Below, piece after piece: positions 861 to 50,375 of a stretch of 64,000 nt of DNA. The position numbers and the translations under genes were made by a program. The DNA is taken from positions 31,620,001 to 31,684,000 of the forward strand of contig OZ024743.1 of assembly GCA_964016885.1 (NCBI GenBank), read 5' to 3'. Numbering within the stretch: the stretch's first letter is position 1; every line of letters begins with the position of its first letter. The notes beneath the pieces are model-generated. The model had not been told where the DNA came from and did not search any database. It saw only the letters and a list, made by a program, of their open reading frames with translations. The DNA comes from Eledone cirrhosa (lineage: Eukaryota).

Positions 861-1828
861 ATAGAGAAAACTATATCTCTTGCAGAGATGGCTTTCCAGG
901 TTTATGGTCCAAATAGTTTTCAGCGCCCTTTTTTTTATCATTCCAAATATGTTGACTATCACAGGCCTTAAGATGCTACGTATTCTCAATTTTAATTGAT
1001 TGATCTTTATAATTACTGAGCTTTCGAAACTCTTTCGAGGAGACGTTTCGATCTGATGGAACGTTCATGTCAGTTAAGAAACGTTTTCTATTTAGGGCCG
1101 TTCAAACTTATAACAGATCTGTTGGACTTGATTGTTCGTTCAGTGTTCACAGGGAAATCCCATGGGATTATCACGTTCTCGCTCCTTATTACTACATCTG
1201 GGTGATGTTCTCTCCGTCTTCAGACCATACGACCTGTACATTAACCTGTGTAAGTATTGCCCCACTCTATCATTCGTCGTTTTATAAGCTTCAAAAGAAA
1301 ACTTTTACCAATTCAAGTTTAAAGTTGTCACGTTCTCTTATGGACACTAAGTGATTTTTTACGACTTACGTTTAAATAAGATAAAATTCATTCTATTGAG
1401 AATACACCTCATAAATCCGGCTAAGGTCCGATCGTCCGAGTCCATAGTTAACATCAACACACCGCCTTAGTTTAGACGGAAAGGGCAGGCAGTTTTCCAT
1501 AGCGAAAGAGGTTGTGTGGTGGATGAGGTTGAAAGTAATGAAAACGGACAGTTTTCTCTTCGGCTAAAACCTTATCACATCGAAAGGAACGTGAGGGTTA
1601 AGAGGGAAGTGCTGCCCCCTAATACATTTAAATTCACATTTGATAATCGATGGTTACATTAATTATGATGAAAATGATGAAGATAAGGATGATTATCACC
1701 ATGATCATTCGCTTGATTACTATCACCTTCGATATACAGGGTCAATGTGATGTTTTATGTATATATATAATGATCCCGTTAAGGGTGAAAGCAGCTATTC
1801 TTTGCTTAAACTTTAATCTGTTATTTTA

Positions 1829-4879: not shown

Positions 4880-5455
4880 ATGGACTGCATACAGGGAAAA
4901 GGTGAAATTAAATGTCAGCGAAACTGGTCAAAGATGGAACTAGCGGTTTTGATCAAGGGGTGGAGCCTGGCTGAAGGGTCACCACTAAGCAAAAAGATTA
5001 CGGAGACCCTGATGAACCATGGCTTTCTGAGGAGGCTCGTGCAGATAGAAAGAAAAAGAAAAGAAATCGAGAAAGCCTATGTTCTCATAGCGCCACATAT
5101 GGGGATGCTAAGCCGTGTCCTCAAGGAGGAGAAAAACGGGGAGAAAGCGAAAGGAAAAGAAAAAGAAAAGGAAGAATGCACAAGCACGGACATTAAAGAA
5201 AATTAGATAACCGCCGCCACAGTCAGGGAGGGCAGGCCGGGCAACCAACAAGCAAACGGTAAAGGTGAGAAGCTAAATCACCTTCCGAAAGAAAACCAAG
5301 CAGTGAGGCACCAGTGGACAACCGTTCAAAGGAAGAACAGAAGGCGCCGAGACACTGGGAGCAAGAAAACCCAGGTAACGTTCAAGTTCTTCAGGAACGG
5401 GACCTGCTAGCATGGAGACACAGGGACAGGCTGTAGATTCGCTCACCCCAGGATC
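4880..5455 (+). pseudogene. ORF1 remnant with Myb/SANT-like N-terminus, WxxV-basic motif and CCCH zinc finger
   Basis: One reading frame with two internal TAG stops gives WSKMELAVLI...LMNHGFLRR..QIERK, then WTTVQRKNRR, then (F)KFFRNGTC*HGDTGTGCRFAHP. Confidence 0.55.
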
Positions 5456-7185
5456 CAAGCAAACTATGCATTCCTACTCACACAACATGCCCCAGCTAAA
5501 ACCAAAAAAACCCAGAAGTATGTTGATGTCGCGCGTGCCCTTTCAACAAGGGGAAGGCACACATATGCCGACGAGATACAGATGGCAGCTGCAGATCAGA
5601 CACATTGTTTAGTGATGGCAGAGAAGATTGTGGGACAGCTGACCTGACTGCATCGTTTTCAGAGCCAGGGCCACTCACACCAGCACCCGAGACCACCACA
5701 ATTAAGGAACCCAGAGTCGCCGCCGCTGACACCATGCCATGGCGTCATACTGACAGCCATTGCTGGCACCCCGAAAATCACACCAGTGCTGCTGCTGAAT
5801 GTCAGAGGCCTGATGAATCTCACTAACATGAGTAAAATTCGCTAGCTGGGAGACTCAGTCATAAGCAATCAAGCATTATGCACGACACTAACCGAAACGC
5901 ATCTGACAAGCAGTATAGCAGATGCGGAAAAACATATACCAAAATATACTGTATTTCGTTCGGACTGGAAGGAAATAACTCATGGTGAGGTTGCTCTGTA
6001 TATCCGTGAATATGTCACACCAATTTTACTGTTGACACATTCAAACTCAGTCTGTGACACACTGATAGTACATATGAAGCAACTAACAACAGTAATATGT
6101 GTCACATATCGGCTGCCCGATGCCCCCAGTCATGAGGGTAAATTTGAGGATAGAAGAGGTCCTTGACACACTGCACCAGGGTCTCAACATTCAACTGCTG
6201 GGAGACTTCAACCTGCCAAAGGTCAAATGACCTCAAGGCCACCTCCTCCCTGGAATGACATCAATAGAACAGAGACAGACGGAGTTTGCTGGCCCTCACA
6301 CACAGGCTGTTCATGGAACAAGCAGTACTCCTCCCAACAAGAGGCGAGAATTTCCTAGACCTCTTTTTTACAAACAACGAAGTGCTCATCTAATGTAAAG
6401 GTGACACCACAAATTTTATCGGATCATAACTTAGTAGAACTAATGTTATGTGGTCCGAGAGAATCAACAGAGACACAACCATCAAGAAGCACCGGGACCT
6501 TATCCAGCCTTAACTTCTACAAGGCTAACTGGAAAAAGATCAAGAGAGAAATCAGAAAGCAAATATGGAGCGACAACACCGCCACAAAAGACAACAACAC
6601 ACAATTTCAACACTTCATGACAATGATACACACTATATACCAAAGGTTTGTCCCGTAGAAGAATGCCAACAGACACAAACATCGTATTCCCAGAGATAGG
6701 AACATACTTATGAGACGAAGAGCCAAGCTCTCAAACCAGTTGAATGTACAACAATAAAAAAGCAAAAAGAAGCAATCCTATTTGAAAGGTGCACAACCTG
6801 ACATCGAGATTGCACTCAAACCTTCCCATGAAAATGAGAGGACAAAGAAAGAAAGCTGGGTCATAGAAAATATTAAAACAAACCCTAAGGCCTTCTTTAA
6901 ATTTGCAAAAGAAACTGCCTCGGTACACTGCAAGATTGGGCCAATCGTCCATACAGACGGTTCATTAACCGAGAATCCCCAAGAGATAAGTGAAATACTG
7001 AACGAACAGTACAAAATTGTGTTCACATGCCCACTGAGGCACATGCAAATAACAAAGCCAGAGGATTCTTTGATGCCACAACGCTCCATGAAGAAATGGC
7101 GACCATCAACCACATAGAGATAACGGAGGAGGATGTGGTATACGCCATAGATGAAATTAGAACAGACTCAGCTGCTGGACCTTAT
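4880..7185 (+). mobile_element. Degraded CR1-group LINE: ORF1 remnant, APE endonuclease and pre-RT region, truncated before the RT core
   Basis: Motifs in order across frames: LLLNVRGL (about 5790), TETHL, VALYI, LLGDFNLP, PTRGENFLDLFFTN, SDHNLV, NFYKANW, IKTNPKAFFKF, EILNEQY, SAAGP. Many stops and frameshifts. Confidence 0.85.
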
Positions 7186-7900
7186 GGTATAACCCACCAT
7201 ATAATATGGAGGTGGCCACACCATTATCTAAGATCTTTCTTTCCCTTATTACGAAGCATTTTCCCCTACACATAAATATAGTAAAATTGTTAATAGAAAT
7301 ACTATTAAAATTTCTTACTCTACGACTCCTAACCTTGCACATAACATTACAGCTTCAAATTTAGCTAAACTACCTAGCCGTAGGAACACGTGCAACCCTG
7401 TAGATAGTACTAACTGTAATTGTAGCAATCGGGTTGATTGCCCCCTATCCGGGAAATGCCTCTCTAGTAACATTGTCTACAAATGTAAGGTTGTAACACC
7501 CATGTCCCGTAGGGCCTACATAGGGTTAACCGCCAATAGATTCAAGCAACGTCTTTACATGCATACCCATTCTTTTCGTTACCCTCTAAGAAGGAATATG
7601 ACGTCTCTTTCAGCTTATATCTGGAGTCTAAAAGACAACCACACCCAATATAATTTACACTGGGAGATCCTAGCTAGGGCTAGGTCGTATAACGGAAATA
7701 AAAGACCATGTGACCTCTGCGCCGCTGAGGCCCTGGAAATACTCTACGCCACAGACCACATCTTAAACAAAAAATCTGAGGCAATTTCGGCTTGTAAACA
7801 TAAATTGCACAACACTTTCCTGTATTACAGCCCCACGTTATACCCTAACGGATAGTACGATCTATACGTGGAGATTTTACGTCTTGATGTGGGAGCTAAT
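7186..7900 (+). mobile_element. Penelope-like element 3' fragment (Cys-rich linker and GIY-YIG endonuclease)
   Basis: KIVNRNTIKISYS, CNCSNRVDCPLSGKC, IVYKC...YIGLT, FKQR..H, LSAYIW, CDLC..E and LNKKSE motifs. ORF 7502..7855. Confidence 0.9.
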
Positions 7901-8000: not shown

Positions 8001-8175
8001 GTCGGTAGAGGTTCGGACGCCATGCGTTGACGCATAGAGTTTCGGCCCTTGTCATTCTGAGTTCAAATCCCGCCGAGGTTAACTTTGCCTTTCATCCTTA
8101 CGGGGTTGACAAAATAAAGTACCAGTAATGTACTGGTCAATGTCTGGCCTTGTGCCAATAGTAGAAACAATTATA
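8001..8175 (+). mobile_element. tRNA-type SINE, family A
   Basis: B-box-like gagttcaaatccc, core gcctttcatccttacgggg..ataaagtaccag, tail gtagaaacaattat. Multiple copies in the window. Confidence 0.85.
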
Positions 8176-15382: not shown

Positions 15383-16486
15383 TAAGTAATGTTGGAGTAG
15401 AAGTTTGATAGTGTCTGGAAGATGACTTAGTAATGTAGGAGTAGAAGTGTGATAGTTTCTGGAAAATGACTTAGTAATGTTGGAGTTTAAGTGTGATAGT
15501 ATCTGGAAGATGACTTAGTAATGTTGGAGTAGGGGTGTGATAGTGTCTGGAAGATGACTTAATAACATTGGAGTAGAAGTGTGATAGTGGCTGGAAGATG
15601 ACTTAGTAATGTTGGAGTAGAAGAGTGATAGTGACTGGAAGATGACTTAGTAATGTTGGAGTAGAAGTGTGATAGTGGCTGGAAGATGACTCAGTAATGT
15701 TGGACCATAGGTATGATAGTGGCTGGAAGATGACTTAGTAATGTTGGAGTAGAGGTGTGATAGTGGCTGGAAGATGACTTAGTAATGTTGGACCAGAGGT
15801 ATGATAGTGTCTGGAAGATGACTTAGTAATGTTGGACCAGAGGTATGATAGTGTCTGGAAGATGACTTAGTAATGTTGGACCAGAAGTGTGATAGTGTCT
15901 GGAAGATGACTTAGTAATGTTGGACCAGAGGTGTGATAGTGTCTGGAAGATGACTTAGTAATGTTGGACCAGAGGTATGATAGTGTCTGGAAGATGACTT
16001 AGTAATGTTGGACCAGAGGTGTGATAGTGTCTGGAAGATGACTTAGTAATGTTGGACCAGAGGTGTGATAGTGTCTGGAAGATGACTTAGTAATGTTGGA
16101 CCAGAGGTATGATAGTCTGGAAGATGACTTAGTAATGTTGGACCAGAGGTGTGATAGTGTCTGGAAGATGACTTGGTAATGTTGGAGTAGAAGTGTGATA
16201 GTGTCTGGAAGATGACTTAGCAATGTTGGAGTATAGGTGTGATAGTGTCTGGAAGATGACTTAGTAATGTTGGACCAGAGGTGTGATAGTGTCTGGAAGA
16301 TGACTTAGTAATGTTGGACCAGAGGTATGATAGTCTGGAAGATGACTTAGTAATGTTGGACCAGAGGTGTGATAGTGGCTGGAGGATGACTTAGTAATGT
16401 TGGACCAGAGGTATGATAGTGTCTGGAAGATGACTTACGTAATGTTGGAGTAGAGGTGTGATAGTGGCTGGAAGATGACTTACGTA
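15383..16486. repeat. 44-bp minisatellite, about 25 copies
   Basis: Unit ttagtaatgttggaccagaggtgtgatagtgtctggaagatgac repeated head-to-tail with no unique spacers. Confidence 0.97.
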
Positions 16487-22290: not shown

Positions 22291-23236
22291 TATGAAATAG
22301 TTCAAAGAAAGAAGTATTTCTGAGTCGTGTAATACAAGTTAATATAAATTAATATATATGATAAAACACAAATACCAACATATAAGTGTTTGTATTGTAA
22401 ATGACTAAGTTAGCTAGATTGAAAAATACTAATTATAATAATACAGTTTGCCTGTTATGATTTAAAATAATAAATCAATAAAAACAAACGATATTGGCAA
22501 ATGGCCGTGGTACTTAGACAAATTTAAATTTCAAAATCAAACCTGTTCCGTAGATAAGTTTAAACTTCAAAATCCAAATAAGTTTCGAGATGAAAGAATG
22601 AAAAAATACCCGTTCGGCTCTCCTCAGTAAGTACCCTGAACAATTGGTATGTATATTTCATTGTAAAGGACTGCTTGAGTTTAGAACTCATTATTCTTAG
22701 TATCAGTGCTCCTTATGTAGAGCTAACTTTAGCCCCATATAAACGGCTGTTATTTCTAGCAGAACGAGTATGCGGCAGCTAGAAACTGGAAAACCATGTG
22801 CGTTAAACAGTCTTTTTAAATATTTTGAAGTGAAACATACCAATTGTTCAGGGTACCTACTGACGAGAGCTGAACGGGTGTATTTTTTCACTTTTTCATC
22901 TGGAAACTTATTTGGATTTTGAAGTTTAAACTTATCTACGGAACAGGTTTGATTTTGAAATTTAAATTTGTCTAAGTACCACGGCCATTTGCCAATATCG
23001 TTTGTTTTTATTGATTTATTATTTTAAATCGAGACAGGCAAACTGTATTATTATAATTAGTATTTTTCAATCTAGCTAACTTAGTCATTTACAATACAAA
23101 CACTTATATGTTGGTATTTGTGTTTTATCATATATATTAATTTATATTAACTTGTATTACACGGCTCAGAAATACTTCTTTTCTTTGAGCTATTTCATTA
23201 TAAAGGACTGCTTGAGTTTAGAACTCATTATTCTTA

Positions 23237-23240
<4 letters not shown>
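22291..23240. repeat. Long inverted repeat (about 370-bp arms at 22291-22660 and 22831-23198) with an about 38-bp direct repeat at 22665-22702 and 23201-23240
   Basis: Arms are near-identical reverse complements. aaaggactgcttgagtttagaactcattattcttagtat occurs twice in direct orientation. Confidence 0.93.
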
Positions 23241-24743: not shown

Positions 24744-24938
24744 AGGGCGGTGGATTTGCAGTATCAGTAGAGGGTCGGAGGCCATGCTTTGCAGCATAGA
24801 GTTCCATCCCTTTACGCTCTGAGTTCAAATCCCGCCGAGGTTAACTTTGCTTTTCACCCTTACGGGGTCGATAAAATAAATAACCACTAATGCATTGGGA
24901 TAATTGCTGGCACTGTGCCAAAAGTAGAAAAAATTATT
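24744..24938 (+). mobile_element. Full-length family A SINE
   Basis: Head agggcggtggatttgcagtatc, B-box gagttcaaatccc, conserved core and tail. Confidence 0.9.
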
Positions 24939-25184: not shown

Positions 25185-25890
25185 GGAATAACTGCGGGTC
25201 GGTCGGATTTTTCAGGCGTCTGGAAACATTTCTGTGAATGTCTCGCCCATTACTGTAAGCGGAGGACGGACAAAGCATCTTGAGCGCATGTTGGGAGAGT
25301 GTTGTTGTAGCTTCAAAAGCCTGACGAACCTGTTCAGGCAGTTCCAAATATTAGGCAAGAATCGACTAGATTTCCCGAATGCGCCAGTGTATTTTGGACC
25401 AAGCACATGAGGTCATCTAGATCGTATATATATAGCTTTTTCATTAGATCGGCCGATAGGTGATGGCATTTCCAAACAATTGATTATCCAGATCATTAGT
25501 TAGTGATCTGCTAGGTCGTTCTAAATAGAATAAGTAGGCAAGGCCGTAGTTCCTGTAAGCTTTACGCATTGATCCCGGCGCATACATCTACAGAGACCGG
25601 ATCAACAATTTAGTTAAGATGACACGGAGAGTCATCAACAGCAGGTGGCAGGGTACTCCCAAGTGGAGAATCAATAGCCATTAATAAAGCCGTAGCAATA
25701 GAAAAATAGAACGGCGGTGGATTTACTAAGTAAATTAGAAAAAGTGATAAGAGATGGCATTGTCCCCAACGTGTGAACGGTGAGAATAGAATTAGACAAA
25801 TTCTTCAACGGGAAATACGAAGGCTGCATTGTCAGAACTAAAGCGCGAACTTTAAAACACGAGCGAAGGAAAGCTGTTCCTTGGATATAT
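25185..25890 (+). mobile_element. Old Tx1-family ORF2 fragment (endonuclease C-terminal half and linker)
   Basis: Remnants DFFRRLETFL and FFNGKYEGCIVRTKAR match DFFRRLETFL and FFNAKHEGCVVRARVR of the element at 44376-50375. Confidence 0.8.
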
Positions 25891-26376
25891 GTTGAGAATA
25901 CAGAAAGACGTTTTTTTTAATGTAACTCAGTTTCTAATATTAATTTCAAGCACAGAAATACATAACATACTTGCTGGTACTGAAAGCTACTCATGGTAAC
26001 TGCAGTTTATGCACTTGAACTTCATTGGTGGATAGGTTTACTTGAAACCTGCCATCCTGATATCGTCTAGCCTGTTTCTACCTAAAAATGTTTCAAACGC
26101 TTGAAGTGATGTTCCTGTGACACACGAACGTATCACTATGACAGGTGGTAGTAATACAATTACGTACAGTTTACATCACATGCTCTCCCCCACCCCCATA
26201 GAGATAGCACCCGCTGTCATGAGAGCTATAAGCGGACGGCAGATTTTAGTTGCCGTATTCGAAATAACATGTGCATTCTATGTTGAGGTGCTTCTGATGG
26301 GTTATGAGAAGTTTTCTATTATATAAATGTGTTGGTGGCTGTATGTACATATTCAAGTAAGGTAGGGCTTTAAACA

Positions 26377-26545
26377 TAATTGTTTCTACTTTTGGCACGT
26401 GGCCAGCAATTATCGCAGTGTATTACTGGTACTTTATTTTATCGACCCCGTAAGGATGAAAGGCAAATTTAACCTCGGCGGGATTTGAACTCAGTCCGTA
26501 AAGGGACGTAAATGTGCTGCAAAGCATGAAACCCGACCCTCTAAA
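26377..26545 (-). mobile_element. Family A SINE
   Basis: Reverse complement of the same core (ggtactttattttatcgaccccgtaaggatgaaaggc, ggatttgaactc). Confidence 0.88.
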
Positions 26546-30673: not shown

Positions 30674-30901
30674 AATTTCTTTATTAGCCACAAGGACACA
30701 AAAGAAGGGGACAAATACAAATGAGGAGTTTACATACAGGTATATGAAAATAAAACTATTAATACAATAACAAATAACAATTAAAATCCCTAATAGGGGG
30801 GAGGTGTTACACAGGTGTTGTACACATCCCGAAAAAATGTACAACCCTCATCTCCAGGAGCACCAAGAGTGAGTACTCCCTTCCTCTCTTCCACTTTTTC
30901 C

Positions 30902-33900
30902 TCAACCTACAGGCTTATATAGAGACAAGGCCCAACCACTCGGGCCATCTTTGCCACATTCACCCACCTTTTATAAAATTTGCTGGGGTACAGCACCTCT
31001 CTCTCCATCCTGATTCTTCTTCCAAAATAATATTTGAAAAAACGAATCAGTTGCTCTCCAGAGAGAAAGGTCTGACCTCAGCCCTTTTAACCTCGTCCAC
31101 CATATAACCTCTTTCACCAGAGCCATAACACATAGGAATACCGCCTCTCCCTCGTTTTTGAAGGAGGGTGGGAGTTTGATCATGACAATGGACTCGGTGG
31201 TCAACTGGATTGGTCCCACCCGCGACAATAGTCGTTCTACATAGCCCCACAGGTCAGTAACGACCGGGAAGTGTACGAATGCGTGTGCGACGGTTTCCTC
31301 GTCGCGCACGCATCTTGGACAGATCTTTTTCGAAGGGTCCCTACCCGGGCGCCCGTGTCTGTAGAGCTTGTCTCGAACTGGTAGAGCTTCTCGGTAGCAC
31401 TGCCAGGCCAGGGATTTTTGGAAGTTGTCCATTGGTCCCGGGCGGAAGGTCCTACCGAACAGACTGGCCAGTTCGTCCTCCTCTACGCCTAGAGATTCTC
31501 CGAGCGTGTCGTCGCACTTGCTGCGGACCAACCCTCTATAGAATGTCGAAGTTGAGTCTCCACTGATCGCCGGGTCCGTTTGCCAGAGGACTGTGAGCGC
31601 CTGAGCACATTCGATGTGCCAGTCGCCCATATTCCTCGGTCTTTGTTTGACTCAGGACTGCAGCTCGGTCAGCGAGACGAGTCGTGGGAAAGCTCGCCTC
31701 ACGAACGGGGCCCACACCGGTTGTCTGGTGAGGAATACGTGGAGGTGCAGCAGCCTGAGCGCGTGTTTGCGCGTGGTCAGGGACGGCATCCCCAGTCTTC
31801 CGTTTGAAGGGTGTTGGCAGCAGATGGATCTTCTCACCAAAGGAGCCCGTTTCTTCCAAACGAATTGGAAGAGAGCGCCCTCCATTTTGGTGAGCGTTTT
31901 GGCTGGACAAGGCACGACGGTCAAGCGGTAGTAGATGACGGACGCTATAAAAGTGTTCGCCACGCCCGCTCGACCTTTCAATGATAGTTTGCACTCGGCC
32001 CACTTCTGGGTGAGCGCAAACACCTTGGCCGTCACCTCGTTCCAGTTCTTCTCCACCTAGAGATCCGGACCAAACCAGACCCCGAGCAGCTTTACCGGTC
32101 CTTCCGTCCAGGGTCCGACGAAGTCATCGGATGGCATCGGTTTGCCTCTCCACGTTCCGAGTTGCAAACCGACGGATTTGTCCCGGTTCAGCTTCGTTCC
32201 TGTGAACCGTTCGTATTCCTCCAGTAAGGTTCCGATCTCCCCGATTTGCGAGGTGCTCGACACCACTACTGTCACGTCGCAGTCCCGGTTCTAAAGTGAT
32301 GCCCTGCAATAGCTCCAACTTCCGCAGTAGTGGCTCGAGCGTCAGTACGTACAAAAGGGAGGAGAGAGGGCATCCCTGTCGGATGGATCGCGTGATATGG
32401 AACGGCTCGGAGAGGTAGCCGTTCATCTTGACCCTTGAGCAGAAGTTGTTGCTGTGCATTGCAGCAATCCAGCCCCTGAACACGCCTCGAGCACCGCATC
32501 CAGGTAATGATGGTAAACCCTATCGAAAGCCTTAGACTGATCTAAGTTGATCAGGGCTCCACCGAAGCCGGGTTTACACCCTACCCTCTCTATGATGTAT
32601 CGCATGAGGAGGAGGTTGTCGTGTATGGACCTGGTCGGGATTGCGCATGTCTGCGCTTCTCCCACCAGGTTTTCGACGACAAGCGCCAGCCTCTTACCAA
32701 CACCTTGGCCAAAATCTGTAACTCTGTGTTGAGCAGAGTTATGGGCCGGAAGTTACCTATGTCATCCACCTTGTTCTTGTCCCCCCTGACTAACATGGTT
32801 GCGCCTTTGGTCACAGAACTGGGAATTCTCCCGTTCTGCTGCCAGTTGCAGTAGACCGCTTCCAGGAGACCGGAGAACAAGTCCGGCATTGTTACGTAAA
32901 ATTCGCAGGGGAGACCGTCGAGACCTGGAGATATGCGTTTGCCGCATTAGCTCAGCGCATACTCTATCTCAGCGGCCGAAATCGGCCTTTCGCAGAACTT
33001 ATCCTCGCTCTCAGAGAGTCGCTGTAGGCCGTCGAGGTATGAACCAAAATCTATAGCCCCTCCCGGCGCGCCGCCCTGCCCGAACAGTTGAGAAAAAATG
33101 CCGCCGAAAGGCCGCGCATATTTGCTTGACGTATCACGCGTCCGTATTGGTCCTCCAAAGACCGAATCGTGGACTTGTTGCCACTTTTCGGCTCCGTCAC
33201 TCGGGCCCAGCTAACAACTTTGGCTCCCTCGTTTCCCAGAGCACGTATTTTGCTTCTGACAACGCAGCCTTCATGCTTTGCGTCGAATAACTGGTCTAAG
33301 GCCGTTCTCGTCGCTAGCACGCTGGCTACGTTTCCACTCCTAAGTGCCTCTTCTACTTTATCTACCAGTTTCTTTTCGGTCTTATTTCTATCTAACACTA
33401 ATACTTTACTAAAACCTATCGAGTCTAATCTAACTGCCCTCTTGAGAGAGTACCACCATCTGTTGTTGACAATGGCCCCCGCCAAGTGTTGCTTAACTAA
33501 AGTGCTAATCCGTCTACTCTAGGCTTTGTATGCCGGTAACGACAAGTTCAGCTTCCAGTAGCCAGGTCCCTGTCTATGGATTTTGTCAAGGTTGACTATG
33601 CAGCTCACTAATTTGTGGTCTGATTAGGCAACCATGAACATTTGTGGACAGCTTAACATGTCCCTGTCCTTCTTTCTAACTAGAAGCTTATCTAGGTACG
33701 ATCTAGATGTTCCGCCAAGATTAGTCCACGTCCACAGTTGCACAGTCGGAAAATCTAGTCGATATCTATCGGCCAGGTCAAATCGGTCGATTAACTGTTT
33801 GAGGCTGTTACATCCCCCTCTATCGGGACATGCTCCCACATATTCTCAACGTGCATCTAGGATTCCATTCCAGTCCCCCACTAACAGCAGGTAGCGGGAC

Positions 33901-34295
33901 GTTCCCAGAAAAGTCTCTACACGTTTGAAGATGTATGGCCGCGGTGTCCCGGATGGGGCATATGCGGTCGCCAGCCTGAAGGCTCCACCTTCACTACCGC
34001 CAACGTCTAGGACCACCATTCGACCCTCCGGGTCCAGGTGTACCGTCTGTGTTACGAGGTCCAGGTGTTTCCGCAGCAAAACAGCATCCCCACCCCCACC
34101 TCCCGGCTGACAGAGAGATGCGTAGATCTCAAAGTCGTCGAAGATGGGGGTCAGTTGTCGATCGCTGTGGATCCTGGACTCGCAAATGGCTACTACATTC
34201 ATACTGTGCGACCTGAGGTTGTTTAAGTGTTTGCCCTGTTTCCAGGGCATTCCCAGGCCGCGTACATTCACACATCCAACTCTAATATTGGCCAT
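30902..34295 (-). pseudogene. Element 1 ORF2 (APE endonuclease, reverse transcriptase, C-terminal zinc knuckle), disrupted
   Basis: VNVRGL, GDWN, WTW, YLD, FRPITLLN, LDQSKAFDRV, RQGCPLS, CPRC...H. The YADD segment is deleted near 32280. Several frameshifts. Confidence 0.93.
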
Positions 34296-34302
34296 GTTGG
34301 TG

Positions 34303-34339
34303 CTGAAAAGTTAAAAGAAGAAGAAAAGAAATCACTCAC
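34303..34339 (-). other. Candidate 37-nt GT-AG intron at the ORF1/ORF2 junction of element 1
   Basis: AAG|GTGAGTgatttcttttcttcttcttttaacttttCAG|CACCAACATG. Confidence 0.5.
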
Positions 34340-36265
34340 CTTTTCGTCTCCTGAGGACCAGGCTGCACAATTTACATGGGGGTGTTGGAAGGTATGTTTG
34401 GTGGTGGTTTCTGGCGGGGTGGGGACGGAGGTGTTTGGTGGGGAGGTGTTGTCTGGTGGGATGGGGATGACATGGGTGGAGGTGCCTATGGTGGGGAAGC
34501 CTTTGAAGGGGACGCAGTTGATTGGTTTCACGCAGGAATTCACCACGTCCTCTACAAATGTTTCTTTTAGGGATCTATAAGTTCCTATAGGGACCCTGAT
34601 CAGTTTTAGGTTCATGTTTTTTTGTTTTTGTTGGAGCTATCCAAAGTTTTCCCTTCGGTTTTGACCAAAGGGTTGTTTCTGATGGTCTCCATCAGTGTTC
34701 TATTTTCTTCGTTTATGTAAGTGTATGTGTACTTTTCCTGTGTTGTGTTTGTTTTTGTCTGTGGTTCCTGCGTGTGTTTTCTCTTTGTTGTGGGTGTTTT
34801 GTTTTCGGGAGGGGGAACTTTTGTTTGTGATGTTTGTGCTGTTTGTGCTGGTGTTTGTGTGTTTCTTTCGTTTTTGTTCATGCGGTGCTTTTTTTTTTTT
34901 ATTTTCACGGGTTGGAAGGGTTCCTCCTCGTCGCTGCTGGGTGCCGTCGATAGTGGTTCCTCATCCGTGTTGATGGGTAGGGGTATGTTTTGGGGTTCTA
35001 TAGTGTCTGTGTGTGTTTTTGTATTTGTTTTGGGTGGGGAGGGGTTGGGTGGGATAGTGTTCTCTGTTGTTATTTCTTGTTGTCGTGGTGGTGGTGGTGG
35101 TTGTGTTGTTATTTGTGGTGTGGGTAAAAGTGGTTTTCTTTTTGTCAATTGAGGATAGGCAGCCCTTAGGTGACCTCTGCTTGCGCAGTGGTAACATGCG
35201 GGCCGCCTACCCTCAACCGAAATGTTTATGTAGGTCTGTCCATCCAGAGGTACTCTTTGGAGGATTTTCATTATACGTTCTGGGCTCATCTGCACCAGAA
35301 TTTGGACGCTAGTCCAACTAAATATATCTCTGGAGGATTTCCCTACTGAGATCAAAATGTCTTGTTCAAAGTCAATTAGGCCATAAAGTATCCACCAAAT
35401 ATCTACTTTGGGTCTTATGCATGTAATTTTTATTTTTTGCGTTCTTTTTCCCATGTATGTAGGGAAAAATGTAAAATGGGTGGACACAATGGGCGCGATG
35501 GAATATTTTTGTGCTGTTATGTTGTCTTTCATCAGCACCGAGATGCTGCCGAAAAGTTTGGCTTTCTGAATGAATAAAATGTTATCCATGTGGTTCCTTA
35601 AAACCAGCTCAATGTCACTCTGAGAAAGTTGAGCTGGTCTTTTTGATGTATTTGAGATTGTCCTGAAAACCACCGTGTTCAGGGCATTCTCTCTCTTTAG
35701 TTCTTGTGGTGAATTTATGCTAAATGATCCATTGGGTCCAAAAGACAAATATTGTTTAGCTTCTTCCAACTTTTGTTTCGCGTTGGTTAAATCCAAAAGT
35801 TGAAATATTTCCGTTTTGTTTTACTGTATCAGCAAAAGAAATGTTGCTGTTGTTGTCTTTTTTGTTGTAGTTATCACTGTTGTTTGTATTTTCTTTGGTG
35901 TTTGTGTTGACATTTTTTCCCTTTTGATTAGTATTGTTGGATGTGGTTTAAATTTTTTCATTTTCTGTATTTTTTGGTGTCTGTTGTGGGCTGTTATTTT
36001 CATTTTTTGTTGTGTGAATTTCCATTTCTTTACGAAAAGAAGTATTTGCAACATATATTTCCTTCTGTGTGTGGATACATGTGACGTTTGTGACGTCAGA
36101 CGTGTTCAGTTGCTTACAAGAAGCTGAAGCTTGGTCACCTTCTAAATGTTGAGGCGGTGATGTGGGCCTTCCTTTGTCCATGTCTGCTACTACCTGCTGG
36201 TCAAGTAGGCATGTCTTTCCCTTCCCATCTTCTTGCTTTGGCAAAGAAGTAGGTGCTTCGGCCAT
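34335..36265 (-). pseudogene. Element 1 ORF1 (gag-like, CCHC knuckle), frameshifted
   Basis: ISVEGRRPACYHCASRGHL aligns with ISVEGKRPKCFRCGSKTHL of element 2. Pieces: 35948-36265, 34612-35796, 34268-34615. Confidence 0.88.
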
Positions 36266-36384
36266 TTAAAAAAAAAATGAAGTGTTTTGCAAAAATATTT
36301 TCGAAGATATTTTGGATGTTTTTGCCCTGAGGGGCACGATATTTTGGAGGACTGACCAGATCAACATTTGACGTGTCAGTCCCT

Positions 36385-36451
36385 CTACAAATTGGTATAA
36401 AATTAAAAGTTCACAATGACGAATTTCTAAGGAAATTTAAACAAAACTTAC
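36385..36451 (-). other. Candidate 67-nt GT-AG intron in the 5' UTR of element 1
   Basis: CG|GTAAGT...ttttataccaatttgTAG|, starting about 31 nt from the element 5' end. Confidence 0.5.
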
Positions 36452-36482
36452 CGAGCAAGTTTAACACGTGTCCATCCCAGCG

Positions 36483-36529
36483 AGATAGATAGATAGATAG
36501 ATAGATACATTTTCTTGTCCATCCCAGCG

Positions 36530-36574
<45 letters not shown>

Positions 36575-44375: not shown

Positions 44376-44377
<2 letters not shown>

Positions 44378-44599
44378 TTTCTTTATTAACCACAAGGGTT
44401 TACATAAAGTAGACATTAAGGACAGTGCAGGACAATACAGGGCGGTACAAATGGGCATTTCTGCGTGTAAAAAAACAGAAAAAAGAGGGTGTAACAAAAA
44501 ATAACAATGAAAAATTCCCCAATAGGGGGGAGACTTCGGAGGGACATTTGTGGAGAAAGCCCAGTAAAAAGCCACAATGACCCTGACCACCAAGGCAAG

Positions 44600-47500
44600 T
44601 GTCCTCTCCCACAGATATATACTCAGAGTAGGCCCATTCACTTGGGTCATTCTTGCTTCTCTCACCCATCTTTCAACAAAATGCTGGGAAGAGAGCACTT
44701 CCCTCTCTACTCTGATTTTCCTTTTCAAATGAAATTTGAAAAAGTCAATCAGAGCATCACCGAAGAGGTAAGTGCTCGTCTTCAGCCATTTCAAACGTGT
44801 CCACCATACTATCTCTTTCGGCATGGCCACCAGACAGATAAAAACTGCCTGCCCTTCCCGGCTAAAGGAGGAGGGCGGGGCAATCCTCACGATGGACTCA
44901 GATGATAGCCGGATCCGTCCTAAACGCGACAGCAGGTGTTCGACATAAACCCACAAGTCAGCAATTTTCGGACACTGGACGAGTGCGTGCAGGACGGTTT
45001 CGTCGCCCTGTACGCATCTCGGACATGCCCGGCTGACGGCACCTCCATGCCTGTAGAGTTTATCCCGAACTAGCAAGGCTCCTCGGTAGCACTGCCAGGC
45101 CAGAGATTTCTGGAAGTTGTCCATAGGCCCTGGCCCGAAAGTTCTTCCGAAGAGATTGGCTAGTTGATTTTCGACGACGCCTAGAGTTTCCCCAAGTACG
45201 TCGTCGCTCTTCCCCTCCACTAATCCTCTATAGATCGCCGAGGTGGAGTTTCCACCGATCACATTGCCCGATTGGTCGAGGGCTGTGAGCGCCTGAAGAC
45301 ATTCCAGTATCCAGGCGCTCCCTCTCGGTCTTCGCTTGACCCAGGACTGCAGCTCCGTCAAGGAAACGACCTGGGGAAATACGTGTCTAGCAAACGGCGA
45401 CCACACCTGATCACCGTCGAGGAAGAGGTGGAGATGTCGTAGCCTGAGCGCGTGCCTGCGCATCATCAGCCACGGCATGCCCAGCCCTCCACGTAGCGGG
45501 TGTTGACAACAGATGGACCGCCTGACCATCGGAGCGCGTCCCTTCCACAAAAAGCGAAAGAGCAAACGCTCCACCGCAGTCAGGCGAGGCTTAGGACAAG
45601 GTACGACGGTCAGGCGGTAGCACATGACAGACGCGATGTACGCGTTAGCCACCTCCGTCGACCTTTCAGGGATAGCTTCCTCTCCGCCCATTTCTGGGTG
45701 AGAGAAGCCACCCTGCTCGTCACCTCGTCCCAGTTTTTTGTCCGTCTGGAGGTCCGGACCGAACCAGACCCCTAGCAATTTAACAGGTCCGTCCGTCCAG
45801 CGTCCGACGACGCTGTTGGACGGCATGGACCTGCCTCTCCAGGTGCCGATCTGTAGGCCCACTGACTTTTCCTGGTTGATCATTGCTACTGTCACCGCTT
45901 CGTATTCTCTTAGTGTAGTGCCGATCGCCTCTATGTGTTTGGCGTTCGACACCACTACGGTGACATCGTCCGCATATGCTGACACGGATCTTCCGCATCC
46001 TAGTTCGCGCGGGACTCCCCTCAACGTCTCCAGTTTGTGCAGTAATGGCTCGAGAGTCAATACGTACAAGAGGGACGAGAGGGGACATCCTTGGCGGACC
46101 GAGCGCATGATGTTGAACGGTTCCGACAGGTGACCGTTCACTCTCACCACAGAGCAGATGTCGCTGTGCATGGCAGCGATCCAGCCTCTGAAGACGGGCC
46201 CAAAGCCAGCCGCCCCCAGAACTGCCGCTAGGTAAAGATGGTCGACCCTATCGAAAGCTTTCGACTGATCTAAATTGATCAAGGACCCACCCGTGCCAGG
46301 TTCCTTAGCTACCCTCTCTATGATGTATCGCATGAGGTGGAGGTTGTCGTGGATGGATCTGTCGGGATTGGCGCATGTCTGCGCCTCTCCCACCAGACCA
46401 CCAACGACAAGCGCCAACCTCTTTGCTAGCACCTTGGCCAAAATCTTGAACTCTGTGTTTAGCAGAGTTATGGGCCGGAAATTATCTATGTTACCCCCCT
46501 TGTTCGGATCCTTTCTCAGCAGTGCCACCGCTCCTCGGCTCACAGAACTGGGAATTCTCCCGTTCTGTTGCCAGTTGCAGTAGACGTCCACCAAGAGGCC
46601 TCCGAACAATCTGGCATCTGTACGTAAAGTTCATAGGGCAGACCATCCAAACCAGGCGATTTACCCCTTGTGCCGCCAGTCATTGCCTCCCTTACTTCAG
46701 CGGTTGTTATCGGCTTTTCGCAACACTTCGCCTCAGTGGCCGAGAGCCCCGGCAGTCCGACGAGGTAGACACTAAAGTCCATCCCTCTACCCGGCCCACC
46801 ACTGCCCCCGAACAGCTGAGCGAAGTGTCGCTGAAAAGCTTCACACATTTGCCCGGGATCGAGTAGCATGCGCCCGTCGTGGTCCACCAAAGACCGGATC
46901 GTGGCTTTGTTGCCACGACGCGCCTCCGCCACTCGGGCCCATTGAACGGCTTTCGTCCCCTCGTGGCTGAGAGCACGCACCCTTGCTCTGACAACGCAGC
47001 CTTCGTGCTTTGCATTGAAGAATTGGTCAAGGGCCAATTTCGCCGCAAGCACGTCGGTCGCAATGCCTTTGCTAAGCGCCTCGTCTAATTTTCTAACTAG
47101 TTCTCCCTCTGCTCTATTTTTCTCTATTGCTAAAGCCTTACTAAACCTAATCGATTCTATTCTAATCGCTCTTTTCAGAGCAAACCACCACTTGTTGTTG
47201 ACGATGGTCCCCGTCAACGCCCTCTTAACTAGTTCGCTAATCCGGTCTCTGTAGGCCTTGCGCGCTGGTAAGGACGCGTTTAGCTTCCAGTAGCCGGGTC
47301 CTCGTCTATGAAGCCTATCTAAGTCAAGCACACAGATCACGAATTTGTGGTCCGTGTAGCTGACTATCTTGAATTGTGGACAGCCTATGCTAGACCTATC
47401 TATTTCCCTACAAAATACTCTATCTAGATATGATCTGGATGACCCTATGCGATTTGTCCAAGTCCACATTGGCGCATTCGGGAAATCCAATCGGTACCTG

Positions 47501-48027
47501 TCAGACAGTTCAAAAAGCCTGAGCAGGTTGGTGAGGCTTTTGCACCCTCCACCCATATCCGCTAATCCCACACAGTCCCAGCGTGCATCTAAGATCCCGT
47601 TCCAGTCGCCCACTAACACTAAAGAGCGGGACGTTCCAAGAAAGGTCTCCAGACGCCGGAAGAAATCAGGCCGCCCTGCTCCTGTCGGGGCATAGACGGC
47701 CACTAGCCTGAAAGCTTGCCCGTCTCCGCTGGTCACGTCCAGCACCACCAGCTTACCCTCTGGGTCCAGGAAGATGGCCCGTATGGCGAGATCCAAACCT
47801 CTCCGAAAAAGCACAGCAACTCCTCCCCCCGATCCAGGACCGCTGGGAGATGCGTACACATCGTAGCCGCCGAAGATCGGTGCGAAGGCCCGTGCTTCGG
47901 AGATTCTGGTCTCGCTGATGGCCACTACATCTATGTTTAGTGACCTGAGGTCGTTGAGCAGGTGACCCTGCTTCCATGACGACCCCAAGCCACGCGCATT
48001 TATGCTGCCTATTCTGAGTGAGGTCAT
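44600..48027 (-). pseudogene. Element 2 ORF2 (APE endonuclease, RT with YADD, CCHC)
   Basis: INARGL, ISET, GDWN, TDH, SPGLDGLP, FRPITLLN, KAFDRV, RQGCPLS, YADD, CPRC..H..C. Frameshift near 46610 and a compensating pair near 45735/45660. The true C-terminal end is approximate. Confidence 0.95.
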
Positions 48028-48065
48028 GTTTAAAATAGAGTGGAAAAATGGGAAACACCACTTAC
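48014..48065 (-). other. Candidate 52-nt GT-AG intron at the ORF1/ORF2 junction of element 2
   Basis: CG|GTAAGTggtgtttcccatttttccactctattttaaacatgacctcactCAG|A. The donor contains the ORF1 TAA stop. Confidence 0.5.
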
Positions 48066-50160
48066 CGTACTTTTGGTAGAGGAGGGATGGTTTTTACATC
48101 CCTTTTCACTTGATCGTCTGGCGAAGAGACCGTTGAATCGTCCTTTCGGCTGGTCGTCGGCTCTTCTAAGAGAATGTCTGAATATACTCTTCGATTGATA
48201 GTTCCTCCTAGGTCCCTGAAATCACCAACTGCGTTGGGGAATTTCGTTTTAATGTTCGTGTATTGTTTCTGTGCTGTTTTTAGCAGTTTTATGTTAGTTG
48301 GCGTTTTGATTGGTGCTGGTATTATGTAGTCGTGTTGTGAAATGTCTGTGTGTTCAATTATGTAAGTCATTAGTTTCTTGTTGTGTGTATTTATTGCCGT
48401 GCATTTGTTTTTCTGGGGGTGGGGTGTGGTTCTGCTATTTTCTTGTCGTTGTTGCTGGGTGTGTGTGTTTTGTTGTTGTGTTTGCGATGTTGGTGCTTGT
48501 GGTGGTGGTGTTGAAGGTGTTGTTGGCGGTGGGGTTGTCGCCGGTGGTGACGGTGGTGCTAGTGTGGGTGGTGATGGTGTTGATGGTGTTGCTGCTGTGG
48601 GTCTCTTTGCAGTAGACTTTACCCTTTTCTCATTTCTTTCCCCCCTTTTCAAAGGCGACGATGCGCTGCTTCTGCGTTTGTGCCTTCTTACGACATTTTG
48701 CCATCTCTCTCCCACCTCACACTCCATGTCTGATTCTGTGAGGTCGGGGAGGGGTACCAGCTCCACTCTTTCACTTGTTGTTGGTGGTGATGTTTGCACT
48801 GGAGTCTCTGTTGCAACTGCATTTGGTATTGCTGTTTTTGTTGTTAATATTTCCACTGCTGCTGCTGCTTTTGATTTCCGTGGCGTGGGTATGGGTCCCA
48901 CAGATCTATCGTTCCTCGTTGCCGCTTGTCCTGTTGCTGGTAGCCGTGGAGCCGGTTTCGGAAGGAGGGGGGTTTCTCCTTTCTCAGGGTCTTTTCGTTG
49001 CAGAAGGCCCTGAGGTGAGTCTTCGATCCACAGCGAAAGCATTTCGGGCGTTTTCCTTCAACACTTATGGGCAGTTGAGTGCCGTTATCGAAGTATATCA
49101 CATCCGGGATAGCTTCGATGCACTCCTGGTTGGTTTGGATTAGCATCTCAATGGAGGTGCCGACCCAATCTTCTCTTACTTTTTTCTGTACTTGCAGTAC
49201 AGTTGTTTTGTCCTCGATTCCGACGAGGACAGACGCGGCCAGCCAAGAAGGGGCCATCCCGGGGGGGACGTGGGTCAGTTTGACCCTCACAATTTTTTGC
49301 CCGCAGTAGGAGGGCACCAACACCATTTCCTCGCTCCTTAGGGTCACTAAGGATTGTGCCTTTGCCTCCTGGGGTGTGGCAAAAAGTACGTCTACGGTGG
49401 CATATTTTTTTCCTCTGGTGATGTGCGTTTTCCGCTGCCACACAGACCCCAAGGCTTTTTGTATTTGAGCCTCTGTGGCTCTTTCCACCCTACGGGATTT
49501 TGTACTTACTGTACGGTACGTGACCGTACAGTGCTGTTGGGTTTCGAAAAATGTTTCCGCTGCCTTGTAGATTGCTCGGTGTCCAGTCTTTGTCACCATC
49601 TAATTCGCTTCCTCTAATTCCTCATTTGTTATCAGGATTGTTTCCAAGTTTTTCGCAATACCTGCAAATGAGATTGGTTTTTCTTTGCTGCTGTTGTTGT
49701 TGTTGTCAGAGCTGCTGTTACTTTTGTTGTTGCTGCAGGTACTACGACTACTGCCTCCGCCGCTGTTGCTGTGGTTGTTGTTGGTGTTGCTGCTGCTAAT
49801 GCTGTTGTTGTTTATGCTGTTGGTGATGCTGTTGCGGCTGCTACTGTTGTTTTCATTGTCACTGTTGCTGTTGTTATTACGGCTGCTACTGCTATTATTC
49901 CTGACGTCAGACGAATGACCTGGGTTTTCGTATTTCCCGCACACCTGTTTCGTCGTTGTCGTCGTCGTCGTGGAGAAATCTTGCACGCTTTGCACGAGAC
50001 TTTTCTTTTCTGTCGTCGCTTTCGAAAGAGAAGGGAGGGAGAGAGACACATTTAAAGAAGGGAGGGAGAGAGACAATCTTCTCTCTGCTGTAGTGACGAT
50101 TGAGGAAGAAGAAGACGGAATGAGTGGGAGTGACCTATAAAAATTCTTTTTCGTAGCCAT
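48062..50160 (-). pseudogene. Element 2 ORF1 (low-complexity N-terminus, CCHC knuckle, Pro/Thr-rich region)
   Basis: Starts MATKK. One nonsense codon at 49600-49602 and a frameshift near 49000. CFRCGSKTHLRAFC knuckle. Confidence 0.9.
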
Positions 50161-50278
50161 GTTGTTTTTTTGTTTAAAATAAATATTGGGCACAAAACCC
50201 CAATAAGCAGTTATTTAACCCCGAAGGGCCAAATAACGGGCAGAAAGACCCCTCTCACGATGAGGAGGGTGTTTTTGT

Positions 50279-50340
50279 CTACAAGTTGGTTAAAGTTTTA
50301 AACAATTTACAATTGTTATAGCGGTCAAAATTTACAATAC
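50279..50340 (-). other. Candidate 62-nt GT-AG intron in the 5' UTR of element 2
   Basis: CAG|GTATTG...ctttaaccaacttgTAG|, starting about 35 nt from the 5' end. The acceptor end is nearly identical to that of element 1. Confidence 0.5.
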
Positions 50341-50375
50341 CTGACAGAGCCGAGCCTCCGTCAACCATAGCATTC

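Follow-up and report, generated by a model that had tools for sequence, protein, structure and literature searches.

Intron-like GT...AG units in the 5' UTRs of two L1/Tx1-type LINEs from Eledone cirrhosa and in a sister family

LINEs are regarded as lacking introns, which an element copied through RNA should lose, and retained introns are held to mark Penelope-like elements (PMC8557442, available part of the text). A stretch of 64,000 nucleotides of AT-rich, microsatellite-rich animal DNA from Eledone cirrhosa (hereafter the window) holds two full-length LINEs, E1 and E2, each with a short segment near its 5' end that begins with GT and ends with AG. This layout raises the question of whether a LINE lineage can keep an intron. 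We examined the unit in both elements, in relatives of E2, and in a sister family from another animal host, and consider its identity as an intron likely, if short of proven, from the sequence comparisons given below.

Two L1/Tx1-type LINEs and the layout of their 5' UTRs

E1 and E2 (Table 1) are 69.6% identical over 3410 nt of ORF2; at the protein level, the identity is 49–77% in ORF2 segments and 30% in the core of ORF1. The ORF1 homologues that carry a species name belong to Octopus sinensis, O. vulgaris, O. bimaculoides, and Argonauta, and point very probably to an octopus as the host. The N-terminus of ORF2 matches an APE endonuclease (PF03372, E 6.7e-15 in E2; 8.2e-5 in E1, below the cut-off), and all nine solved structures matched by the endonuclease are the L1 endonuclease or its variants. 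The RT and the C-terminal zinc-binding domain match PF00078 and PF13966, with the structure of L1 ORF2p (E 1e-20) ranking above that of R2 (E 1e-14) for the RT. A CCHC knuckle, C-x2-C-x4-H-x4-C, is read in E2 ORF1, and its three Cys are invariant in an alignment (A4). An APE at the ORF2 N-terminus, an L1-like RT with a zinc-binding domain, and a separate ORF1 with a CCHC knuckle are the features of an L1-group (L1/Tx1) LINE, and we place E1 and E2 in this group. The label Tx1 is provisional and follows the original prediction and the listing of 13 recently active L1-Tx1 families for O. vulgaris (PMC13282606). The domains found in E1 and E2 are APE, RVT_1, and zf-RVT only, with neither the GIY-YIG endonuclease nor the PLE RT of Penelope-like elements. 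On either side of each element lies the same microsatellite (one copy per family only). Searches of viral contigs, and locus searches with single proteins, gave no match. An Rfam search of the window and four sister loci matched no family, ruling out a ribozyme or spliced-leader RNA of known type.

Table 1. Positions of the features of E1 and E2 within the window
Element	Feature	Positions	Strand	Description
E1	Whole element	30674-36483	minus	Degraded L1/Tx1-type LINE of full length within (TATC)n
E1	5' leader, putative exon 1	36452-36483	minus	3' part predicted to pair with the donor (small hairpin)
E1	Intron-like unit	36385-36451	minus	67 nt, TCG|GTAAGT...TTGTAG|A
E1	Copy of the ~35-nt E1/E2 block	36384-36417	minus	Ends at AG|A, contains ACCAANTTGTAG
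E1	Predicted hairpin starting at the acceptor	36346-36385	minus	
E1	ORF1	34270-36265	minus	Broken by stops and frameshifts; 30% identity to E2 in the RNA-binding-type domain and knuckle; 3'-end frame inferred
E1	ORF1/ORF2 junction	34303-34339	minus	Donor AAG|GTGAGT and acceptor TTTTCAG 37 nt apart, 7 nt before the ORF2 ATG
E1	ORF2	30907-34295	minus	APE endonuclease, RT, zf-RVT; broken
E1	Purine tract directly after the ORF2 stop	30864-30908	minus	Best predicted partner of the junction donor and pyrimidine tract
E2	Whole element	44376-50375	minus	Full-length L1/Tx1-type LINE, less degraded than E1, inserted in (TAT)n
E2	5' leader, putative exon 1	50341-50375	minus	Predicted hairpin over the exon side of the donor
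E2	Intron-like unit	50279-50340	minus	62 nt, CAG|GTATTG...TTGTAG|A
E2	Remaining 5' UTR	50161-50278	minus	Three predicted hairpins; whole UTR z -3.56
E2	ORF1	48062-50160	minus	Stop at 49600-49602, frameshift near 48972
E2	ORF1/ORF2 junction	48014-48065	minus	Donor ACG|GTAAGT, which overlaps the stop of ORF1; pyrimidine tract; first AG at 52 nt
E2	ORF2	44612-48027	minus	APE, RT, zf-RVT; frameshifts; stop region apparently deleted in this copy
E2	Purine-tract remnant after ORF2	44594-44612	minus	Complementary to the junction donor
E2	3'-UTR acceptor-like site	44461-44480	minus	Rank 1/426 in the AT-rich model; no counterpart conserved in E1

The 5' UTRs of E1 and E2 are colinear homologues of near-equal length, with the ATG at +219 and +216, respectively. 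Both units lie on the minus strand where the original prediction had placed them (36451–36385, 67 nt, in E1; 50340–50279, 62 nt, in E2), possess GT and AG termini, and start close to the 5' end, as it had also proposed: the donor G is at +33 in E1 (start taken as 36483, uncertain by 1–2 nt) and at +36 in E2, while the acceptor AG ends at +99 and +97. The prediction had further described an acceptor-like motif common to both elements in UTRs that are otherwise poorly similar. The 12-mer concerned, ACCAANTTGTAG, occurs exactly twice in the window. However, with one mismatch allowed, 1.66 chance matches are expected in the window and at least two appear in 47 of 100 shuffles, so the 12-mer alone is not significant. 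Its significance resides in its position, since an 11/12 match within 3 nt of the same offset arose in 2 of 300 shuffles, as opposed to 32 of 150 for a match anywhere in the UTR. The similarity spans approximately 35 nt up to AG|A with a score of 29, which 5 of 1000 shuffles reached (one of them on the same diagonal), as did 1 of 989 stretches drawn at random from the window. This block is the best-conserved part of the two UTRs, as the prediction implied, but it is longer than the motif and is set in UTRs that are colinear homologues.

Splice sites were scored with generic matrices that were not trained on octopus. Under these matrices, the 5' donor of E1 is good (rank 5 of 278 GT sites) and matches GTRAGT, and that of E2 is weak in both respects (rank 38 of 313). 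The acceptors rank 11/378 in E1 and 78/426 in E2 in an AT-rich model, and 111 and 173 in a vertebrate-like model, which is modest by the same generic standard. Pyrimidines make up 70% (E1) and 55% (E2) of the 20 nt before the AG, with no clear tract. From the window alone, the case for an intron is no more than suggestive. The expected 12-mer matches, the 32 shuffles with a match somewhere in the UTR, and the weak E2 sites are what would be seen if AT-rich homologous UTRs carried a fortuitous GT and AG. The position-matched tests, at 1–7 in 1000, and the recurrence of the layout in a family 37–40% identical in ORF2 speak against such a coincidence, which we consider highly improbable; the comparison with that family appears to have largely refuted it already.

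A different explanation, which takes up the internal promoter raised in the original prediction, is that the conserved block is a DNA element of such a promoter and the GT and AG ends are by-products, similar to the human L1 donor that lies within a RUNX3 site (PMC5860796, available part of the text). The block stands at a fixed distance from the 5' end (+86 to +99), within the best-conserved part of the UTRs, and its ACCAA is a poor acceptor context. The units also hold three to four (A/T)TTGT or ACAA(A/T) words, where 0.5 are expected per 65 nt. We take these words to resemble HMG-box sites.

Part of the 5' half of E2 was found in 19 sequencing runs under 15 organism labels. Contigs from four runs were compared with the E2 region 47850–50375, a comparison that can reveal presence and not absence. 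All four runs differ from E2 at the ORF1 stop, and three of them at the frameshift, and therefore both look private to the copy in the window. Among 40 of the 307 differences from E2, a biased and hence weak selection, eight lie within the unit, and its GT and AG are unaffected; one is at the N of the 12-mer, and two are at donor positions +4 and +5, where the relatives change away from the consensus. Within the same 40, the exon end is AAG in nearly all relatives (one difference), and differences are denser in the unit than in the flanking UTR (8/62 vs 4/153, p 0.006). One contig record spans the E2 5' unit in unspliced form (X8 record 30, under a 31-letter rule), and another spans the junction (X6 record 17). 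No joint matching either unit was present among 15 of the 115 joints for the E2 relatives.

The window contains further repeats. At 36508–36530 (minus strand), between two (TATC)n tracts, the first ~14 nt of E1 are joined to 7–8 nt resembling the E1 3' end, which may represent a minimal insertion with an internal deletion. Two older fragments from this LINE group, with neither 5' UTR nor junction, lie at 25194–25908 (plus, part of the endonuclease) and 1432–1656 (plus, ORF2 3' end). A tandem array at 15385–16482 comprises 25 copies of a 44-nt unit with 92% matches, and an inverted duplication of several hundred bases, possibly foldback or MITE-like, was seen by eye at ~22330–23240. A 207-codon frame at 7232–7855 (plus) resembles the GIY-YIG end of a Penelope element, ~4880–7170 (plus) resembles a degraded LINE with an endonuclease-like start, and three copies of a short repeat (~8020–8170, ~24760–24930, and ~26400–26530) resemble octopus tRNA-derived SINEs.

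Donors and acceptors in a sister family

An alignment search identified a sister family as tandem arrays of intact relatives, located in host-derived animal contigs inside a MAG labelled bacterial (G001). Contigs L038–L076, L080, and L082–L098 of this MAG are animal DNA made of head-to-tail Tx1-type arrays. The sister elements, from another animal host, are 37–40% identical to E2 and E1 in ORF2 and 21–23% in ORF1. Among the units of G001, ORF2 is 93–95% identical, while the 5' UTR and ORF1 occur in strongly diverged versions. This arrangement suggests exchange of 5' modules together with head-to-tail insertion at a single point of the element itself. Because 5'-truncated units and array starts join at one point, the 5' end of the sister elements is fixed. 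After removal of overlaps by contig position, 58 distinct tandem junctions remained, comprising 52 full-length 5' ends, three 5'-truncated units, and three array ends. The 52 copies are tandem and related, and count as approximately 11 subfamilies in one host rather than as independent cases.

All 52 full-length 5' ends carry GTAAG(T/A), 50–129 nt after the preceding AATAAA and at +34 of the element in the reference family. A conserved YAG acceptor follows in 33 of the 52, as TTTYAG|GGGTTC in 15 copies and as CCTAG, 15–21 nt before the ATG, in 18; a clear pyrimidine tract precedes the acceptor in the sister group termed B. Sister units with an acceptor are 175–264 nt long and T-rich, and their interiors align poorly. 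In ten subfamily representatives with an acceptor, none has an ATG inside the unit, and seven are depleted of YAG within it (P≤0.05). The largest sister family (19/52) lacks CCTAG and has only AAAG, its first AG being at +66. These observations establish that the feature is real and more widely spread than the window alone could show. They strengthen the proposed intron through its donor, its acceptor, its AG-poor interior, and the missing internal ATG, whereas the E2 donor and both octopus acceptors stay weak, and the 19 copies with no CCTAG count against it as well.

The octopus 12-mer is absent from the sister 5' UTRs, and therefore the conserved part is the splice signals and not the 12-mer. 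This result weakens the suggestion that the 12-mer is a conserved promoter element: donors and acceptors persist where it is gone, and nothing about a DNA motif would require it to end at YAG or the sequence before it to be poor in AG. Nor would a promoter explain the donor at the ORF1 end described below. As the origin of the splice-like ends, a promoter appears improbable, though one can coexist with an intron.

The original prediction had proposed searching for copies that precisely lack the unit. None was found among the 52 sister 5' ends, which are too few and too interdependent to exclude a class of ~2%. The sister elements carry a third module, GT(A/G)AGT...CCTAG, of 33–45 nt with a variable interior, which lies 15 nt downstream of the stop of ORF2 in all 62 copies (for instance, L047:10483–10527). 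A length of 33–45 nt is short for an animal intron. Together with the 37-nt junction of E1, these modules suggest that GTRAGT...YAG modules can be kept without excision.

This leads to the main rival of the intron, namely that the units are splice-signal mimics that are seldom or never excised, and that U1 snRNP and splicing factors bound to the donor and the U-rich tract protect an A-rich transcript from early cleavage or silencing. The very short modules, which look too short to splice, and the acceptor-less family favour this reading, as does the better conservation of donors than acceptors (52/52 vs 33/52 in the sister family); none of the 52 copies lacks the unit, and the ORF1s of E1 and E2 each contain two A(A/T)TAAA sites. 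In human cells, introns shield from HUSH even when they are not spliced (PMC8770142, available part of the text), which for octopus would be an analogy only. Mimicry leaves unexplained why pyrimidine-rich, conserved acceptors stand just before the sister ATG, and why YAG is depleted between the sister donor and acceptor. We regard it as unlikely.

A second donor at the ORF1 end and predicted RNA structure

With the generic matrices, the top-ranking donor of the entire element is found at the ORF1 end in E1 (1/278), E2 (1/313), and the sister unit (1/366). This donor, which did not figure in the original prediction, is stronger than the 5' donor in both E1 and E2 and is present in all 65 sister junctions. 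As a control, the best donor in the ORF1-end region of ten distant LINEs ranks 8–310; these were taken from 37 metagenome loci that are 23–41% identical. The donor overlaps the ORF1 stop in E2, lies inside the last codons in E1, and begins one base after the stop in the sister elements.

One possible role for this donor is the fusion of ORF1 and ORF2 into one protein by removal of a 52-nt intron that holds the ORF1 stop. Removing 48065–48014 would indeed place E2 ORF1 in frame with the ORF2 endonuclease, and a single ORF of 1676 aa occurs naturally in a distant relative. However, since the phase of the donor varies between E1, E2, and the sister family, fusion works only in E2: in E1, neither of the two nearby AGs is in phase with the donor in the homologue-aligned frame, and the sister donor follows the stop in 65 of 65 cases. 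Protein searches, which were weak, also yielded none running from the ORF1 end into the endonuclease N-terminus with an intact junction. Fusion is thus quite improbable. The single-frame relative is a distant metagenome LINE (L001:495–5525) with ORF1 and ORF2 in that frame, and an unnamed protein of 176 aa (P0184) links the knuckle region of ORF1 with the central part of the endonuclease, by deletion or splicing. A G-K/G-E ending in four close ORF1 homologues, picked post hoc and at the protein level only, would fit a read-through donor but was set aside as evidence for these reasons.

The top acceptor of E2 and of the sister unit is a 3'-UTR site, and that of E1 lies at the junction (AT-rich model for E1 and E2). 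The ORF1-end donor fits the production of an ORF1-only RNA better than an ORF1–ORF2 fusion. Against an ORF1-only RNA, the E2 3'-UTR acceptor is not conserved in E1, and none of the 65 sister junctions skips ORF2.

Folding predictions place the 5' donor in paired regions. Its pairing probability is 1.0 in 6 of 11 sister representatives and partial in the rest, and 0.9–0.99 in E1; in five of six group B representatives, the donor is predicted to lie in a perfect hairpin with a complementary arm. A consensus fold of E1 and E2 was set aside, two sequences being too thin a basis. The hexamer GCTCGG is common to the first hairpins. At longer range, 34298–34343 of E1 is predicted to pair with 30864–30908 at -37.3 kcal/mol, the best of 562 windows and a value reached in 2 of 500 shuffles. 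The corresponding pairing of E2 (48050–48066 with 44594–44612) ranks 7th of 582, part of the tract apparently having been lost, and that around ORF2 in the sister unit ranks 4th of 599. The partner of the junction donor hexamer is ACTCAC in E1 and ACTTGC in E2, a compensating change. A long-range pairing that encloses ORF2 and masks the junction donor is therefore no more than possible from these models, the prediction being strong in E1 and weaker in E2.

A probable, partly spliced 5'-UTR intron and its relation to known systems

E1 and E2 carry an aligned donor and a block of ~35 nt leading to the AG despite protein identities of 30% in ORF1 and 49–77% in ORF2, which argues for an intron. 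We lean towards the view that the 5' unit is a genuine 5'-UTR intron of an APE-type LINE, one that is spliced incompletely and behaves like that of Penelope. The spliceosome would remove the unit from only part of the RNA, and new copies would be made from unspliced full-length RNA, by which the unit is kept. Local hairpins predicted to mask the donor may set aside the unspliced pool for retrotransposition. The splice signals may be maintained for a gain in export or translation, brought about by splicing or by U1 binding close to the cap, as with the Penelope intron. The ORF1-end donor could join a 3'-UTR acceptor to give an RNA for ORF1 only.

The original prediction had suggested that spliced RNA is translated and unspliced RNA serves as the template. 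This division fits the finding of no unit-less copy among 52, and would need an exception to L1 cis-preference, under which spliced copies should be inserted (~2% in human L1; PMC5860796, available part). A wider, tentative proposal is a retrovirus-like programme in an APE-type Tx1 clade, in which a 5'-UTR intron and an ORF1-stop donor joined to a 3'-UTR acceptor are combined with masking of the donors by hairpins and long-range pairing, so that spliced RNAs serve translation and only unspliced RNA is retrotransposed, against cis-preference. Taken as a whole, we find it doubtful.

The closest known parallel is Penelope of Drosophila virilis, whose 5' UTR has a 75-nt intron 46 nt after the start that is needed for reporter protein and not for the RNA level (PMC2377424), its splicing having been demonstrated by RT-PCR (PMC2377424, PMC8557442). 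According to the available parts of these reports, Penelope and Chlamys-3_cRei share with E1 and E2 a short intron, putative in the latter, a few tens of bases into the element (46 nt in Penelope, 33–36 nt in E1 and E2), its retention in genomic copies, and sites conserved across diverged relatives. Penelope differs by its GIY-YIG endonuclease, its own RT clade, and splicing established by RT-PCR, whereas E1 and E2 have APE, two ORFs, and a predicted intron.

The original prediction called an intron unexpected in LINEs, which holds with the qualifier that human L1 has used 5'-UTR splice sites, approximately 2% of its full-length copies being spliced dead-ends (SpIREs). In the available text of the same report (PMC5860796), human L1 resembles E1 and E2 in belonging to the L1 group and in having a conserved donor (G98) close to its 5' end; most of its RNA is unspliced, and structure has been proposed to mask its donor as well. 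It differs in that splicing is described as a harmful collateral of the RUNX3 site, with acceptors shifting between subfamilies and ~2% of copies spliced, whereas here donor–acceptor pairs with AG-poor interiors recur across lineages and none of 52 copies is spliced, a sample too small to exclude 2%.

Among LTR elements, BARE1, copia, and Ogre likewise have splice sites at the boundary of the structural gene, translate spliced RNA, replicate unspliced RNA, and leave no DNA copies of the spliced form; in BARE, the RNA pools for translation and for replication are separate (PMC3735527, available part). These elements differ by packaging RNA in particles, and the promoter and R region allow them to sort the pools. 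In LINEs, target-primed reverse transcription goes together with cis-preference, and therefore a sorting step unlike that of LTR elements would be needed. Kibi and Koshi, microsatellite-targeting Tx1 elements, share the Tx1-type layout and insertion into simple repeats, but target (TC)n and (TTC)n rather than the (TATC)n and (TAT)n of E1 and E2, and no intron is mentioned in the available text (PMC4494074). TART has introns in antisense transcripts only (PMC1636488, available part). A search of the open-licence literature found no description of a Tx1 or other LINE family with conserved introns, and the available portions of two cephalopod repeat papers mention L1-Tx1 with the word "intron" absent.

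If the intron is real, a LINE lineage that keeps donor–acceptor pairs across ~60% divergence of ORF2 would offer a natural test of how the template RNA is chosen and of how general cis-preference is. The same lineage could show whether a mobile element escapes host surveillance of intronless RNA with the help of splice signals.
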